From a virus (taxonomy: Duplodnaviria > Heunggongvirae > Uroviricota > Caudoviricetes): DNA of 16,811 nt. The notes under the pieces are model-generated. The model was not told the origin of the DNA and ran no database searches. It saw nothing but the letters and a program-made list of their open reading frames with translations. Positions 4,179 to 14,727 of the stretch are shown piece after piece. The stretch lies in the IMG/VR virus record IMGVR_UViG_2579778842_000004. One strand, written 5' to 3'. A program made the translations under genes and the position numbers. Numbering within the stretch: the stretch's first letter is position 1; every line of letters starts with the position of its first letter.

Positions 4179-4699
4179 ATATCCAATGTGTATGCTGTCG
4201 ATGCTACGCGCACGTACTTGTCGCAAAATATCAGACAAAAGCCAGATTCAGAACGTCGTGATAACCACCAGCACAACAGAGAGGTCATGTAACGCGATTT
4301 ATCACACCAGATACATGTGATTGGTGTACCCGCATAAAACATCGTCATAGCGCGTCCTGTGCGCATATACGCCGATAATCAACACATCACCACCACTCTG
4401 TCTCATGTAGAGAACACTTTTATGGTATCCCCCGCCATCGTGCGCGTACTAGTCGGACGCAGTTGCAAAACTTTTTGCAACTGATACCCCTCGCGCGCGT
4501 ACTTGTCTCGAAATTGGTGTTTTGCTGTGGCAGTGATATCAGAAAAATCTTCCTGTTTCACATAAAGCGGATATGCGCGTACTGTAACGACCCCATCAAC
4601 GGGGGCGGATTTGAAATCCCGACCCAAGCTATGTACCAAATGCCATGTCTTGGATATATGATGATTGCCATTCTAAACAACGCTAAAGGGAGGGTTGGT

Positions 4700-5332: not shown

Positions 5333-7348
5333 TTATTGAGCTTCCTTTTGCGATGCTTGTGCTGCTGTGGTCAGTGATTGTGTGACCGTACTGATCGCTC
5401 TGTCATATGCTGTGCTACCTTTTGGCGTATTTGCCAGACGTAACAAGGCATTTCGTATAACAGGGCTTTCGTATGCCTTCGCTGCTCCGCCTACGGCACC
5501 AGCAGCAGGAACAACAAACGCAGCCGTTTTTAGCATCCCCGCTAATACTGCTGCGTTTATGATGCCACCACCAACTAACAATCCATAAAGCTGCTGACCA
5601 TTTAAGTTTTGAACGTTCGCTTTTGCCGCGTGTCTTGTATCGTTGAGGTATTTAATAACGCCGTCCAGTTCCTTTCCATGTACGCCTTTAAAGAAAGTTG
5701 CTGATTGCTTCCTGTTCCGGTGTAACGCATTAATAAACTTCTCAACACTGATATTTCCAGACGGATCAGTCGCCTTATCTACAGCATTCTGAACTATGGC
5801 TGCTCGTGCGTTTTGCCTACCATTGTCATCCAGAAGCCTGTAAAGCTGAGAACGTTCTGATGGGCTTTGGCTAAAAACGAGTTTTGTTACATCCTCAGGC
5901 GTGGCCTTGCCGCTGGCTATTGCCTTTTGAACGCGCGTTCTTCCCATCATGTCATTGAATTTAGACCATGAGCGATCAACCCTTGCCATATTAATGGCTT
6001 CGTCTGCTCCAAGATTTTTGGCTACGGCTTTTTTCATATCCGCCGTATATGCCTTGTAGATAATATCGCTGGCTTTCTGGAGCGTATCTTTATCAACAGT
6101 GTCAGATGACGCCATAAATCGCTTTCGAAGATCGGTTCTGTTTTCCCTCGCCAGACGCAGGTCATTTGGTCCGCTGGTGATATCGTCTTTAAATTGCTGC
6201 AAGACTTTTACCGCGGCTCTATCCTGAGATTTGCCCGGGCGGCTTAACACGGCAATCTGATTGTCGATAGCTTTTACCGTGTTTGAGAGATCGACAGGGG
6301 TATCCCCCATAGCGTCAATTATGCGGTTATATCGCTTTCCTGCTGCCTCAATGAATTTTTGTTGCCCTTTAGTCGCAGATTCATAAAGCTGTTTATCAGA
6401 AATGCCACCCAGACCATCGCTAAATGTTCTGACTAAATTTTCTCGTGCTTGTTGTTGATTCAGCCGATTCTTACCGGTTCCAAAAAAAGGAACTCTTTCG
6501 CCTAATGTCTGAGCCTGACTCTGCATAAAGGTTTTATCTTTCAGCATGTCACTGGTCATTAACGGTAGGTTTCTTTCCGATGCAAAATCAACAGCGGCTT
6601 TCGCTTCCGGTGCCATATCACCGCGAACGGCCCTCGAAACGGCACTCACTGTATTCTCCAGACCCTTACCAATGCCGCCAATGCCAGCAGAGATTACCGT
6701 TTGTAACGGATCAATATCTTCTCCACCAGCAAGGCTGGTGGCTCCCTGTAGTGCTAAATCTGTAGCTGCTGATTTCCCTATGGCCCCCAGCACCGTTCCG
6801 GCCCTGCCCGCTGGTGTAAACGCCAGCGCATTAGCCAGAAACGATGCCACGTCTTGCGGCGATAAACCCGGCTTGTTCAGAGCATAATCACCGGATGGTA
6901 GGGAAACGATAGTGTTACCCTTCTCATCCTGCCTTAATTTCGCTCCCATGCTCTGAAGAATCTTTTCCTGAGATGCGTCAGAGCCGAAAAGTTGAGACCA
7001 TCGAGCTTTTAGAGCATCCATGCTGAGTGAGGTTAACTCTGGGGCAAGGTCGACATTTTGCAGTCTCTCCATCTCTGGAGTCATTCGGCTTTCGCCTGTT
7101 ATAGCATCGCGCATCGCAGCCCCAAGGCTGGCTCCCTGTTCTGCTGAACGCTCAAGCCCCTCTCTTTGCTGAGTAGCTAACTTTGCATACCCTGACGCAA
7201 GAGAGTTGTCTGCTGGCGATTGCTGAACACCTTGTTGTGTTGGTGCTGACTGACCAGCAAAATACTCATCAATGGCGGTGCCAATATCTTCGGTGCTCGT
7301 ACCATCAGGGAAGGTAAATGTCTTACCGTTTGCAGTTACTTTCATCAT
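5333..7348 (-). CDS. Large (671 aa) Ala/Gln/Gly-rich, largely helical-looking protein with C-terminal hydrophobic segment; function unknown
   Basis: Start overlaps the upstream stop (ATGA at 7348-7345). C-terminal [40 protein letters not shown] is membrane-like. No enzymatic motif recognised. Confidence 0.8.
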
Positions 7349-8736
7349 TCCACCGTAAATTGAATGCCTGATTTTGACGTGTAGCTACCTCCTGCTGATT
7401 GCTGAGTAGCTGGCTGTTGCCTTGATGATTTCTTCCCGCCATTACCGACATTAACGTTATATTGCTGGTTGTAATTGTCGGTATATTGCTGAATGTCGCG
7501 CATTGATTGTTGTAGTGCTTCAGGGCTTGAGAAATCAGGCTTTGGCATACCTTGAAAATACCTATTGGCCTCTGCTTCGGTGTTGATGCCAGATGCCCCC
7601 ATATCTCGGGCTGCCGCAATCCCCTGATTTTGCATTTTGCCCAGGATTCGCTGTGCAGCGTTGTATAGCCTCCTCTCCTCAGCACCAGATGCCCGGCTAC
7701 GAATATCTGCACCAAGAGCAAAAGAACCTGAAGAACCAGTAATACCTGTCATGAAGCCAATATCGTCAATTGATGCGCCAGAAATTGCCTCAAGATCTTT
7801 CTTCATTTCGTAATTCTGCGCATTAGCTGCCGACGTGGCCGGAGCAGCAATAGAGCCAGCTGGAACGCGAACTATGTTCCCCTCATTGTCTATACCTTCG
7901 TAGAACGCGTTAGCACCAGCACCATGAAGTTTCCCGCCTACGGTTACAGTTCTTCCGTCTGCTAGTTGAACTGTGCGCTCATTATTCCCAACCGCCCCTT
8001 TCATTGATGTTCTCTGCATCGCTAAATCCTGACCGCGCATCGTGATGTTCTGTCCTCGTGCTGTTAGCGCCTCGCCAGCCTGATTGCTGCGGATTGTCTC
8101 TGCCAACTTGTCACGCTCAATATCCCGACCTTCCATTTGATCTTTGATATCGAAGTACTTCTCATGGCCGAGAGAAAACAGTGCCAGATTACCTGCGAAG
8201 TGCTGGAAGCCCTGCGGGTCATTAACCTGCATTTCAGCAATAGTTTCTGGAGGGATACCTAAACGACGCATCTCCTTTTCGTTATCCATCATGAACCTGC
8301 CAAATGCGCCCGGACCAAGCGACGAAGCTACCTGTGCTTTAAGCGCCAGATTGCCAAAATCATCCCGCTGGGCGTCATCGACATACCCCATGCCTTTACG
8401 GACTTCCTCAAACTCTTCTGGGAATGCTGTAATAAGATTACGCATCTTCTCCCTGTCGCCGGACGCATAAGCATCTGCATAACCTTTCTGGAATGCCGCT
8501 TTACGCTCCTGCTGTTGCTGCTGCTTATAAATATCAGCAACTCCAGCCAGACCACGAAGACCTGTCAGAGCAACGTTATTTGCACCTGATCGAGCCAGTT
8601 CATTGTTTTCGCGGATCAGACCAAGCGTTGCGTTAATGTCGCTTGCCTTTGGCGCATTCTCATTTTGCGTACCGATGCCAGCCAGAAAACCACCAGAATT
8701 AATACCCTGTTGCCACGTAGCCATTGATTTACCCAC
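7345..8736 (-). CDS. Large (about 460 aa) low-complexity Gly/Ala/Gln/Asn-rich protein; function unknown
   Basis: Long ORF, translationally coupled to the 671-aa gene. Track start is GTG 8736; ATG at 8724 ([12 protein letters not shown]...) is an alternative. Confidence 0.78.
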
Positions 8737-13339: not shown

Positions 13340-13530
13340 TTTTCACCCCCAAGAATTACCAGCTCTGCACGGGCATCGTTAACCAAAGATGAGCACGCTT
13401 TAATCGCATCCACGACATCAGTAGCGTCCATTTCTTCAGCCGAAAGACTGACAGCAACCAGGACAGCCGCTGCTTGCTCGATTAATTGAAGTGCGGACGT
13501 AAGGCGAGGGGTATTAATTGAGTTATTCAT
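13336..13530 (-). CDS. Small acidic hypothetical protein (64 aa)
   Basis: ATGA-type overlap with neighbours. Confidence 0.5.
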   Translation of the reverse strand: MNNSINTPRLTSALQLIEQAAAVLVAVSLSAEEMDATDVVDAIKACSSLVNDARAELVILGGEK

Positions 13531-13741
13531 TGGTTTCCCCCGTTTTTACTGGCATTTCGCCACCTTCCAGCAGGAAATGAACGTCACGAACGGCGAGATC
13601 CAATATCGCGAGTAACGCCTTCAGTCTTTCGTCTCGTGAGGGAGAGTTGCTCACCAGAATGTCGTTAATCACTTCTGTCAGTGTGATGATCTGGCTTGTG
13701 CGTTCGAGGGGATCCATATGCACATCGTAGGTTTTAATCAT
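13523..13741 (-). CDS. Small acidic hypothetical protein (72 aa)
   Basis: ATG 13741 with GGAGGTG 6 nt upstream; overlaps the stop of the 13734-13928 ORF (CATGATTAA). In frame with the long 13523-14551 open frame. Confidence 0.5.
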   Translation of the reverse strand: MIKTYDVHMDPLERTSQIITLTEVINDILVSNSPSRDERLKALLAILDLAVRDVHFLLEGGEMPVKTGETNE

Positions 13742-14551
13742 GTGCCACCTCCATGCGGATACGACCAGCAAAAAAGCAGACGTGATCGCGCACCAGAGAA
13801 CGGCGAGCATCGCGTTCAGACTCGGCAGCAATATGATGAATTTTGGCGGTAATTGTCGGGCAATCGCGGCGAACTGCGGCGATAATCCAGATAAATTGCG
13901 GTTTTTGGGTAGGGGTAGTAGCCAGCATGTGGCAGCCTCCTTGATTGATGGTTTATAGCCACCGCCGGAGGTCCTAAGCTCGCTGGCGGTGGACTGTACA
14001 GGGTTAGGACTACTGGCAATCAAGGAAACCAGCCTGACCGAAGTCAGCCCCATACAGCCCACCATTGATAAGGTGTGCGTGTGCGCCGATACAAAAAAAG
14101 ACGCTGGCGCGTCATGTATCGCCTCGATTGCCTGCGGGGTCCTAATCCCGGCACCCGTTTTATGAGGTGCCTTATAACCATAAACCGTGTTGCCGCATAA
14201 CGGCAAGCTCTTTTTTATGGACTCCGAAAACTCACTATTGGAAGCACCAGATGCACAATACATCGCGCTCATTTCGTTAACGTCACGCACGTGGACGAAT
14301 GTTTTTGTGGAGTCACTACACGAGCAGAACAGGTGATCTACGACCAGAAATTCTCTGGCGCAGCCGCTGACCTTCTCAACGCTAACACCATCGACCGTAA
14401 TTTCTGACATAGTTAAGGCATCCGCTCCTACCACCAGCAAATGATAAACTTTGCTTGTATCTGCTGTATTAATGCCTGACTTTGCTGTCATATTGCTGGA
14501 TTTTGGCGACATACCAGCCAGTGAAAATGTCTTCTTCTGGACGGTTAGCAT
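13523..14551 (-). CDS. Long uninterrupted open frame (342 codons); N-terminal about 150 codons look coding, middle section coincides with RNA structures; possibly composite or frameshifted
   Basis: ATG 14551 has GGAGG 7 nt upstream and overlaps the upstream stop (ATGCTAA). No in-frame stop until 13523; a T7 run sits at 14099-14093. Alternative annotation is the two small ORFs listed separately. Confidence 0.3.
13734..13928 (-). CDS. Small basic hypothetical protein (64 aa)
   Basis: ATG 13928 preceded by textbook SD AAGGAGG (13942-13936, 7-nt spacer). The SD lies in the 3' arm of a predicted RNA stem. Confidence 0.45.
   Translation of the reverse strand: MLATTPTQKPQFIWIIAAVRRDCPTITAKIHHIAAESERDARRSLVRDHVCFFAGRIRMEVAHD
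13936..14113 (-). promoter_or_regulatory. Structured RNA leader/attenuator-like region (minus-strand transcript)
   Basis: 5' to 3' on the minus strand: hairpin GACGC-GCCA-GCGUC then U7 (14113-14093); CUGAC-UUCG-GUCAG tetraloop hairpin (14047-14034); 9-bp long-range stem CCUUGAUUG (14025-14017) pairing CAAUCAAGG (13947-13939), which contains the SD of the 13928 ORF and encloses an 8-bp hairpin CCACCGCC/GGCGGUGG (13992-13959). Confidence 0.4.
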
Positions 14552-14727
14552 TTGTTAACCTCCGCGAACTCCTTCATGAAACGCGCCAGCGGTTGTACGC
14601 ATGGCGATTGATACCCGTCGCGATAGAACGTCACTCGGTTGTGAGACACGCTTTCGACAGTAACGAGTGCTCCGTGGGCATCTTTGTAGCGTTTTTGAGG
14701 TTGTGGTGTTCCTGTAGGCTTAAACAT
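14545..14727 (-). CDS. Small hypothetical protein (60 aa)
   Basis: ATG 14727 with GGAGG 6 nt upstream, 4 nt after the AntA-like stop (MFKPTGTPQPQKRYKDAHGALVTVESV...). The track start 14814 would overlap the upstream gene. Confidence 0.5.
   Translation of the reverse strand: MFKPTGTPQPQKRYKDAHGALVTVESVSHNRVTFYRDGYQSPCVQPLARFMKEFAEVNKC

Follow-up and report, generated by a model that had tools for sequence, protein, structure and literature searches.

In the window analysed here, a stretch of 16,811 nucleotides (nt) from a virus of the Caudoviricetes (IMG/VR record IMGVR_UViG_2579778842_000004), a single open reading frame (ORF) of 342 codons runs along the minus strand across small genes and structured RNAs (13523..14551; 'ash family protein' WP_032167119.1 in RefSeq). 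What is such a frame for? The preliminary description of the sequence offered two answers, either one long protein with a nested product or a set of overlapping small genes, and considered a frameshift within the frame. We find that the two answers hold together, as they do for eta and kil of phage P4, and that the frameshift part is not supported. The ORF is probably the counterpart of P4 eta in a phage-inducible chromosomal island (PICI) of the EcCIMP1 type, and its translation would serve to shield the RNA immunity region that it covers. All window features lie on the minus strand unless stated otherwise.

A long open frame over an RNA immunity region

The frame begins at ATG 14551, with GGAGG as a Shine-Dalgarno (SD) sequence 7 nt 5' of it, and ends after 342 codons at a stop codon at 13525-13523. 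Over these 1,029 nt it contains no internal stop, compared with 16 and 21 in the other sense frames; the three antisense frames over the same stretch hold 17, 9 and 18. Among 20,000 dinucleotide shuffles, with 14.3 stops on average, not one was open. The preliminary description was thus right to report an open frame from a well-supported start. The ATG overlaps the stop codon of the DUF4222 gene upstream (14545..14727) in the sequence ATGCTAA, and because of this overlap we suggest that the DUF4222 gene and the long ORF are translationally coupled. The stretch is 100% identical in Escherichia coli UMNK88, where the RefSeq name is likewise 'ash family protein'.

Phage P4 provides the precedent. 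Its eta ORF (8767..8168 of P4, 199 amino acids (aa)) spans an isrK RNA (8692-8615) and a C4/CI RNA (8507-8420) and ends as kil (65 aa). Forti et al. (1999, J Bacteriol 181:5225), for whose experiments we rely on the summary in PMC10111431, placed a constitutive promoter within eta and found that its transcript is terminated early through the CI RNA and the seqA RNA sites. In the same summary, Kil is the shorter product of the same frame, an upstream late promoter is the sole source of full-length Eta, which is coupled to an upstream alpA homologue, and the translation of eta prevents the termination (PMC10111431).

Corresponding parts are present in the window. The RNA structures that had been noticed within the long frame are members of two Rfam families, an isrK RNA of the P4 seqA type (14170-14094; RF01394, 63 bits against a gathering score of 50) and a C4 antisense RNA of the P4 CI type (14069-13982; RF01695, 80.2 bits against a gathering score of 45). 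The isrK RNA contains a seqA target, recognized by its complementarity to the C4 loop (about 14132-14119), and a predicted intrinsic terminator with its hairpin at 14113-14100 and a U7 tail at 14099-14093. In C4, hairpin 2 lies at 14033-12, with the specificity loop (seqB) at 14028-14017. A seqC-type target of the same loop (13936..13950) covers the SD sequence of the icd gene downstream and is complementary to the loop over a 15-nt run.

The small genes proposed to overlap the long frame are also real. The first is an Icd/Kil homologue of 64 aa (13734..13928; NF033153, 71.7 bits), referred to here as icd, which occupies a frame other than that of the long ORF, is preceded by AGGAGG, as had been claimed for a nested SD-supported ORF at this position, and is 43% identical to P4 Kil. 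The second consists of the C-terminal 72 codons of the long ORF (13523..13741), which have their own GGAGG and their own ATG at 13741, in frame with the long ORF, and the stop codon of which overlaps ATG 13530 of the next gene. This 72-aa gene is annotated separately in strain PK8241, and its family is conserved. Both the Icd/Kil homologue and the 72-aa gene are genes in their own right.

We asked how specifically the C4 loop recognizes its two predicted targets. In a scan of 1.3 kb, the top two duplex sites for C4 hairpin 2 were the seqA of isrK (~14132) and the icd SD sequence (13950-13936). The window's C4 loop forms runs of 11 nt with its own seqA and 15 nt with its own seqC, and no non-cognate locus equals them. 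Among 26 distinct loop sequences, the mean longest run with seqA was 8.3 nt for cognate versus 5.7 nt for non-cognate combinations, and with seqC 10.8 versus 6.9 nt. Given this cognate pairing of the C4 loop with seqA and seqC, a three-site immunity arrangement of the P4/P1 type is therefore present. In the immI region of P1 and P7 (c4, icd, ant), C4 is processed from the transcript that it regulates and masks the ribosome-binding site (RBS) of icd (Rfam RF01695); icd is the first gene of the P1 operon, and the downstream cargo is an antirepressor.

Just upstream of isrK, conservation points to an internal sigma-70 promoter, the analogue of P4 PLE (14177..14206). The window's copy consists of a -35 element TTGCCG at 14206-14201, an 18-nt spacer and a -10 element TATGGT at 14182-14177, 6 nt before the 5' end of isrK. 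The consensus of 61 distinct sequences is TTGCnT, a spacer of 17-18 nt and TAnnGT, 6-7 nt before isrK.

The T7 run had been correctly placed at 14099-14093, and a run of seven Us in a coding frame just before a strong RNA structure raises the alternative that programmed frameshifting links the long frame to icd or yields a second product. The slippery role assigned to it was not borne out, however, because the run is the U-tract of the isrK terminator, and at least six Ts are conserved at this position in all five sequences of the first isrK alignment. Moreover, read onwards from the T7 run, the icd frame closes 84 nt short of the icd ATG, and the third frame meets a stop codon after the T7 run and no later than 115 nt ahead of that ATG. 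Frameshifting would be unproductive because neither shifted frame reaches the icd ATG, and relatives of the ORF reach icd in frame without any shift. A programmed frameshift at this site is therefore extremely improbable.

The frame is under selection to stay open

We examined conservation of the frame in a sample of 70 loci found by the Icd/Kil protein only, with one genome per species, which we supplemented with the window, P4 and two E. coli relatives to give 73 usable loci. Both isrK and C4 are found just upstream of icd in all 73 loci. In 71 of them, the same frame runs without a stop from the beginning of isrK to the end of C4; stops at varied positions in the long frame, for which the preliminary description had advised looking in homologues, are thus not seen in 71 of 73 independently ascertained loci. 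The distance from isrK to C4 takes ten values (98, 101, 125, 128, 139, 140, 143, 146, 176 and 185 nt), nine of which equal 2 mod 3; the exception is L037, a locus with a broken frame. Stop triplets are rare in the long frame throughout, with counts in the long, +1 and +2 frames of 2, 21 and 63 in isrK, 0, 35 and 25 in the spacer between isrK and C4, 1, 82 and 41 in C4, and 1, 21 and 138 in the spacer between C4 and icd. The start of the ORF overlaps the stop of the upstream gene in most loci, as ATGA in 28 of them and as ATGCTAA in the window. Because the frame is open in 71 of 73 loci, with mod-3 spacing, stop avoidance, a coupled start and a conserved promoter-like element inside the ORF, all together, we conclude that it is under selection to stay open and is no chance ORF.

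These data bear directly on the alternative that the ORF is an artefact of annotation, open by chance over non-coding RNAs and overlapping small genes. The sole protein-family match of the ORF does fall on the RNA region, and its annotation in RefSeq is inconsistent (both described below), as an artefact would predict. However, an artefact accounts neither for the absence of any open frame among the 20,000 shuffles nor for the indels in multiples of three, the avoidance of stops and the coupled start across the 73 loci, and it has to contend with the experimental precedent in P4. We consider it very unlikely.

A second alternative accepts translation over the RNAs and confines it to an inner frame. 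In Gifsy-1, orf45, a short ORF over a C4-like RNA, is translated, as seen in western blots of a SPA-tagged product, and is coupled to the next gene; its nucleotides are conserved and its amino acids variable, and IsrK is regarded by the authors as a structural homologue of P4 seqA (PMC4825925). By analogy, translation in the window might start only at the long-frame ATGs inside C4 (14065 and 14053), leaving the 5' 160 codons unused. The geometry is very similar, in that the possible starts of orf45 are positions +107 and +119 of the isrK transcript and those of the window are +106 and +118, likewise 12 nt apart. The window's isrK-to-C4 distance of 101 nt also occurs in a Salmonella phage relative, and IsrK activates the translation and coupling of orf45. 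Such a control nevertheless leaves unexplained why an open and coupled frame extends 183-447 nt upstream of the promoter in unrelated 5' variants and why stops are avoided inside isrK itself, and no obvious SD sequence precedes ATG 14065. Use of the inner starts alone is thus unlikely, and inner-start and read-through mechanisms could coexist.

The frame changes register relative to icd

The loci differ in how the long frame meets icd. In type A (68 of the 73 loci), the long frame coincides with that of icd and shares its stop codon, giving a product of 174-292 aa. Type B consists of the window together with L016 and two close relatives of the window, L003 and L008. The distance from the start of C4 to the icd ATG is 141 nt in type B versus 142 nt in type A and P4, a change in the spacer between the icd SD sequence and its ATG, and therefore the long frame is +1 relative to icd. 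The type B frame crosses icd in this register, such that the ORF stretch over icd is icd read out of frame, and continues for 208-211 nt past the icd stop (211 nt in the window) through the next gene.

We also ascertained loci in IMG/VR by the 72-aa gene (n=25). In 22 of these 25 there is a 254-355-aa ORF in the frame of the 72-aa gene, at identities of the 72-aa protein down to 38%; one locus ascertained in this way, L097, is type A. Because 22 of 25 loci keep the arrangement down to 38% identity, type B is a stable minority variant and no error.

P4 likewise has an open +1 frame over kil (8460-7888, minus strand of P4), which runs in frame into epsilon and corresponds to the register found in the window, and the +1 frame over kil or icd is open in many type A loci too. 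The shift in register was therefore probably free of cost. The downstream partner of the frame also varies by element and can be icd, the 72-aa gene, another gene or a Rha-like gene. That openness is kept despite the re-registered frame argues for selection on translation itself.

The 'Ash' match coincides with the RNAs

The name of the ORF comes with a protein family, which raises the possibility that the conserved entity is a protein. The sole Pfam match of the ORF is PF10554 (Phage_ASH; 54.1 bits, cutoff 26) at residues 124-219, which coincide exactly with isrK plus C4. The same family matches residues 22-146 of P4 Eta. PHROG families annotated 'transcriptional regulator' match residues ~106-220 of the ORF, and a protein search returned homologues along the full length of the ORF, 329-376 aa long, in E. 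coli, Klebsiella and Pluralibacter, with identities as low as 43% across 98% of the query. Together with the conservation of the C-terminal 72 aa as a protein, the existence of these families and homologues would fit a fusion of an 'Ash' regulatory domain to the 72-aa protein that has a sequence-specific job, with the embedded RNAs being secondary.

However, the conservation of the matched region is explained by covariation of RNA pairs. In C4, 99.8% of cells are paired across 65 distinct sequences, with 14 of 27 pairs changed on both sides, and in isrK 95.5% of cells are paired, with double changes at 10 of 17 pairs, compared with 30-51% paired in slid controls; both alignments were fitted to the covariance models, such that these counts lean towards the structures. 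The invariant residues of the 'Ash' region are an FF, encoded by the U-tract of the terminator, and an MVG, encoded by the C4 stem. Outside the matched 'domain', the 5' third of the ORF is hypervariable, mosaic and without a family match, the stretch over icd is merely icd out of frame, and the downstream partner differs between elements. A protein with a sequence-specific job is thus distinctly unlikely as the object of conservation. We further considered that the ORF is spurious and the Pfam family built on translated non-coding RNA, and rejected this on the strength of the full-length homologues at 43% identity and the unbiased frame tests.

In RefSeq relatives (L001, L003, L004 and L078), the Prokaryotic Genome Annotation Pipeline (PGAP) names the same frame in four ways. 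It appears as a 342-aa 'ash family protein', as a pseudogene labelled 'Icd-like, frameshifted; internal stop', as a 256-aa 'Icd-like protein', and as 'ash family, incomplete' together with a separate Icd. Adjoining small ORFs carry implausible names such as 'nicotinic acetylcholine receptor subunit beta' and 'ubiquinol-cytochrome C reductase'.

The element is an EcCIMP1-type island

By its gene content, the element that carries the ORF is identified as an EcCIMP1-type PICI. Its gene set comprises int, AlpA, AntA, DUF4222, the Ash ORF, a DUF927 primase, P22-like ejection proteins and PerC, and no terminase gene was found in this set. Upstream of the ORF lie AlpA, a 143-aa ORF, AntA and DUF4222, and downstream of it four overlapping small genes and the DUF927 primase; at every junction in the chain from AlpA to the primase, the genes either overlap or are separated by no more than 13 nt. 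EcCIMP1 itself is a PICI found in E. coli MP1, and the P22-like Lederbergvirus phage Kapi1 acts as the helper that induces and transfers it (PMC11773190). Its alpA is induced by the helper, and its authors noted a conserved 'Ash family protein', which they list without analysing the embedded RNAs or the frame (PMC11773190).

Comparison of the window with EcCIMP1 shows that the immunity cassette (window ~14146-13942, containing seqA, the C4 loop and seqC together) has been swapped between islands that are otherwise ~98% identical. The EcCIMP1 cassette is of another specificity and is exactly 39 nt longer than that of the window, and the frame is therefore kept. The window's cassette is ~90% identical to the isrK-C4 module of the Shiga toxin (Stx) 2 phages F039, TL-2011c and P13771, and its C4 loop differs from the Stx2-phage loop by one base. 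Judged from these sequences, cross-immunity or cross-talk between the PICI and an Stx phage is possible.

Other features of the element and its relatives are as follows. A 516-aa E. coli protein, P0109, consists of the first 120 codons of the ORF (84% identical) fused to a P22 gp20-like ejection protein (PF16928); it represents a deletion variant that lacks the primase and the small genes as well as icd and the RNAs. In the window, 5333-8736 encodes a homologue of the P22-injectosome translocase (463 aa, PF16928) and a 671-aa neighbour, and 8471-8724 is 85.6% identical to a DNA-transfer gene of Kapi1; the products of this region are predicted to be ejection proteins carried by the satellite. 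A PerC-family gene lies at 3162-2875, and a second tyrosine integrase gene at 2240-897 is followed by an int-alpA RNA at 888-822 (RF02996). This second integrase and the int-alpA RNA may come from a tandem second element or from the far end of the island.

The variable 5' third contains a terminase-gene fragment

The 5' third of the ORF (14207..14551) is hypervariable and indel-rich, and its first 124 codons have no match in Pfam, NCBIfam or PHROGs. In the window's clade, it forms a mosaic extension of 183-447 nt before isrK that is open in every variant. Antisense to the ORF, on the plus strand, the window carries here a 107-nt fragment of a P22 gp3-type small-terminase (terS) gene (14297..14403), which is 87-90% identical to terS nt 267-374. 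The first 22 nt of the fragment (14297-14318) align with the annotated P22 pac site. In three IMG/VR phage contigs (L110, L115 and L117), the same terS position is identical to the EcCIMP1 22-mer at 22 of 22 positions and to the window 22-mer at 21 of 22. An exact search of IMG/VR with either G or T as the fourth base gave 16 matches, all of which were the islands themselves or the three phage terS with the G version; in this search, no phage terS carried the window's own T version. Kapi1 was rejected as the source of the fragment, as it has no match to the 107 nt and its TerS is of the Sf6 type.

In the sister islands L011, L012, L014 and L101, arrays of motifs lie inside the variable region of the long ORF. 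One motif is P22-pac-like (GAAGrTTTTTCTGAyATCACT). The second (GAGTTTCGAGACnAGTACGCG / TTTCGAGACAAGTACGCG), of which the window has copies (AGTACGCG) at 4576, 4496 and 4443, agrees at 17 of 18 positions with a segment of the Sf6-type terS of Kapi1 (L079 18868-18892). The array of the window and of EcCIMP1 is located outside the ORF, in an intergenic region at window 4401-4600.

On the basis of these alignments, the fragment at 14297-14403 may represent a pac site that was captured by a PICI in which no terminase gene was found. We put forward, tentatively and with more doubt than belief, the broader idea that the frame is a 'ribosome shield' selected only for openness and that its variable 5' third is a landing pad for captured pac sites of helpers. 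If this idea is true, pac capture could explain how terminase-less PICIs are packaged by Lederbergvirus helpers.

Proposed mechanism

The mechanism that we propose takes its parts, the frame and the complementarities from the observations above, and its dynamics from analogy with P4, P1 and Gifsy-1. While the island is quiescent, an isrK-C4 transcript would be made from the internal promoter, and C4 would pair with seqA and seqC, mask the icd RBS and halt transcription before the replication genes. A helper phage would induce the AlpA-controlled upstream promoter, and ribosomes would pass from AntA through DUF4222 into the long frame. Translation through the RNAs would keep isrK and C4 unfolded and Rho off the transcript, on the model of eta translation and Rho-dependent termination at timm in P4, with the long frame closing an otherwise untranslated gap of ~620 nt (14545-13928), and transcription would then reach the coupled small genes and the primase. 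In the type B window, ribosomes would cross icd out of frame and finish on a fusion with the 72-aa gene. If the frame works as such a shield, the act of translation would matter more than the protein.

Several observations weigh against this reading of the ORF as an eta counterpart. The frame is broken in a few natural relatives, namely PK8241 (L003), which has a stop in the 5' third, L037 and L064. In the 5' third, the ratio of non-synonymous to synonymous polymorphism (pN/pS) is 0.34-0.73, a range that draws on just 14-24 differences and is not clearly different from off-frame controls, compared with a pN/pS of 0 for DUF4222. A generic promoter scan did not call the internal promoter, and the predicted site matches 8 of 12 consensus positions. 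The first terminator, that of isrK, is intrinsic, and we only infer its suppression by translation. Finally, icd is out of frame with the long ORF, unlike in P4.

Should the eta reading be correct, 'ash family protein', an annotation present in ~1/5 of complete E. coli genomes, would denote a P4 eta-type frame over an RNA immunity switch. It would then probably be no ordinary protein domain, and current pipelines name it inconsistently. The logic of P4 eta/kil would extend to an experimentally validated PICI family, with the further feature that the frame can change register, leaving icd out of frame and fusing to the next gene, yet stay open. The locus would thereby offer handles on the silencing, the switch-on and, possibly, the packaging of EcCIMP1-type islands.

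Comparison with known systems

One of the closest known systems is P4 eta. In both systems, the long ORF spans isrK/seqA and C4/CI, is coupled to an upstream gene and starts upstream of an internal promoter, which in the window is a predicted one; the small genes downstream begin with a Kil/Icd homologue, the RBS of which, like seqA, is complementary to the C4 loop; and PF10554 matches the ORF, in each case over the RNA module. The differences lie in length and context. The window ORF has 342 codons versus 199 in P4, with a variable insertion of ~330 nt between its start and the promoter. Kil is the in-frame C terminus of Eta in P4, whereas icd is at +1 in the window and the ORF is fused to the 72-aa gene. 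The upstream partner is DUF4222/AntA in the window versus vis in P4, and the window element belongs to the PICIs of P22-like phages, whereas P4 is a P2 satellite. The immI region of P1 and P7 shares with the window a C4 RNA over the icd RBS and icd as the first gene; P1 differs in having an antirepressor as its cargo.

The isrK-orf45-anrP region of Gifsy-1 resembles the window in that, downstream of isrK, a short ORF that is translated and coupled overlaps a C4-like RNA (STnc1160; PMC4825925). Its translated frame differs in comprising 45 codons and in starting downstream of isrK, the regulation that has been shown is activation by IsrK in trans, and no long upstream ORF is described (PMC4825925). 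EcCIMP1 resembles the island as a whole. It has the same gene set, with identical accessions that include DUF4222 WP_000476150.1 and two small downstream ORFs, an intact type B ORF of 355 codons and the same terS fragment, and differs from the window in its integration site (tRNA-Thr versus next to yicC).

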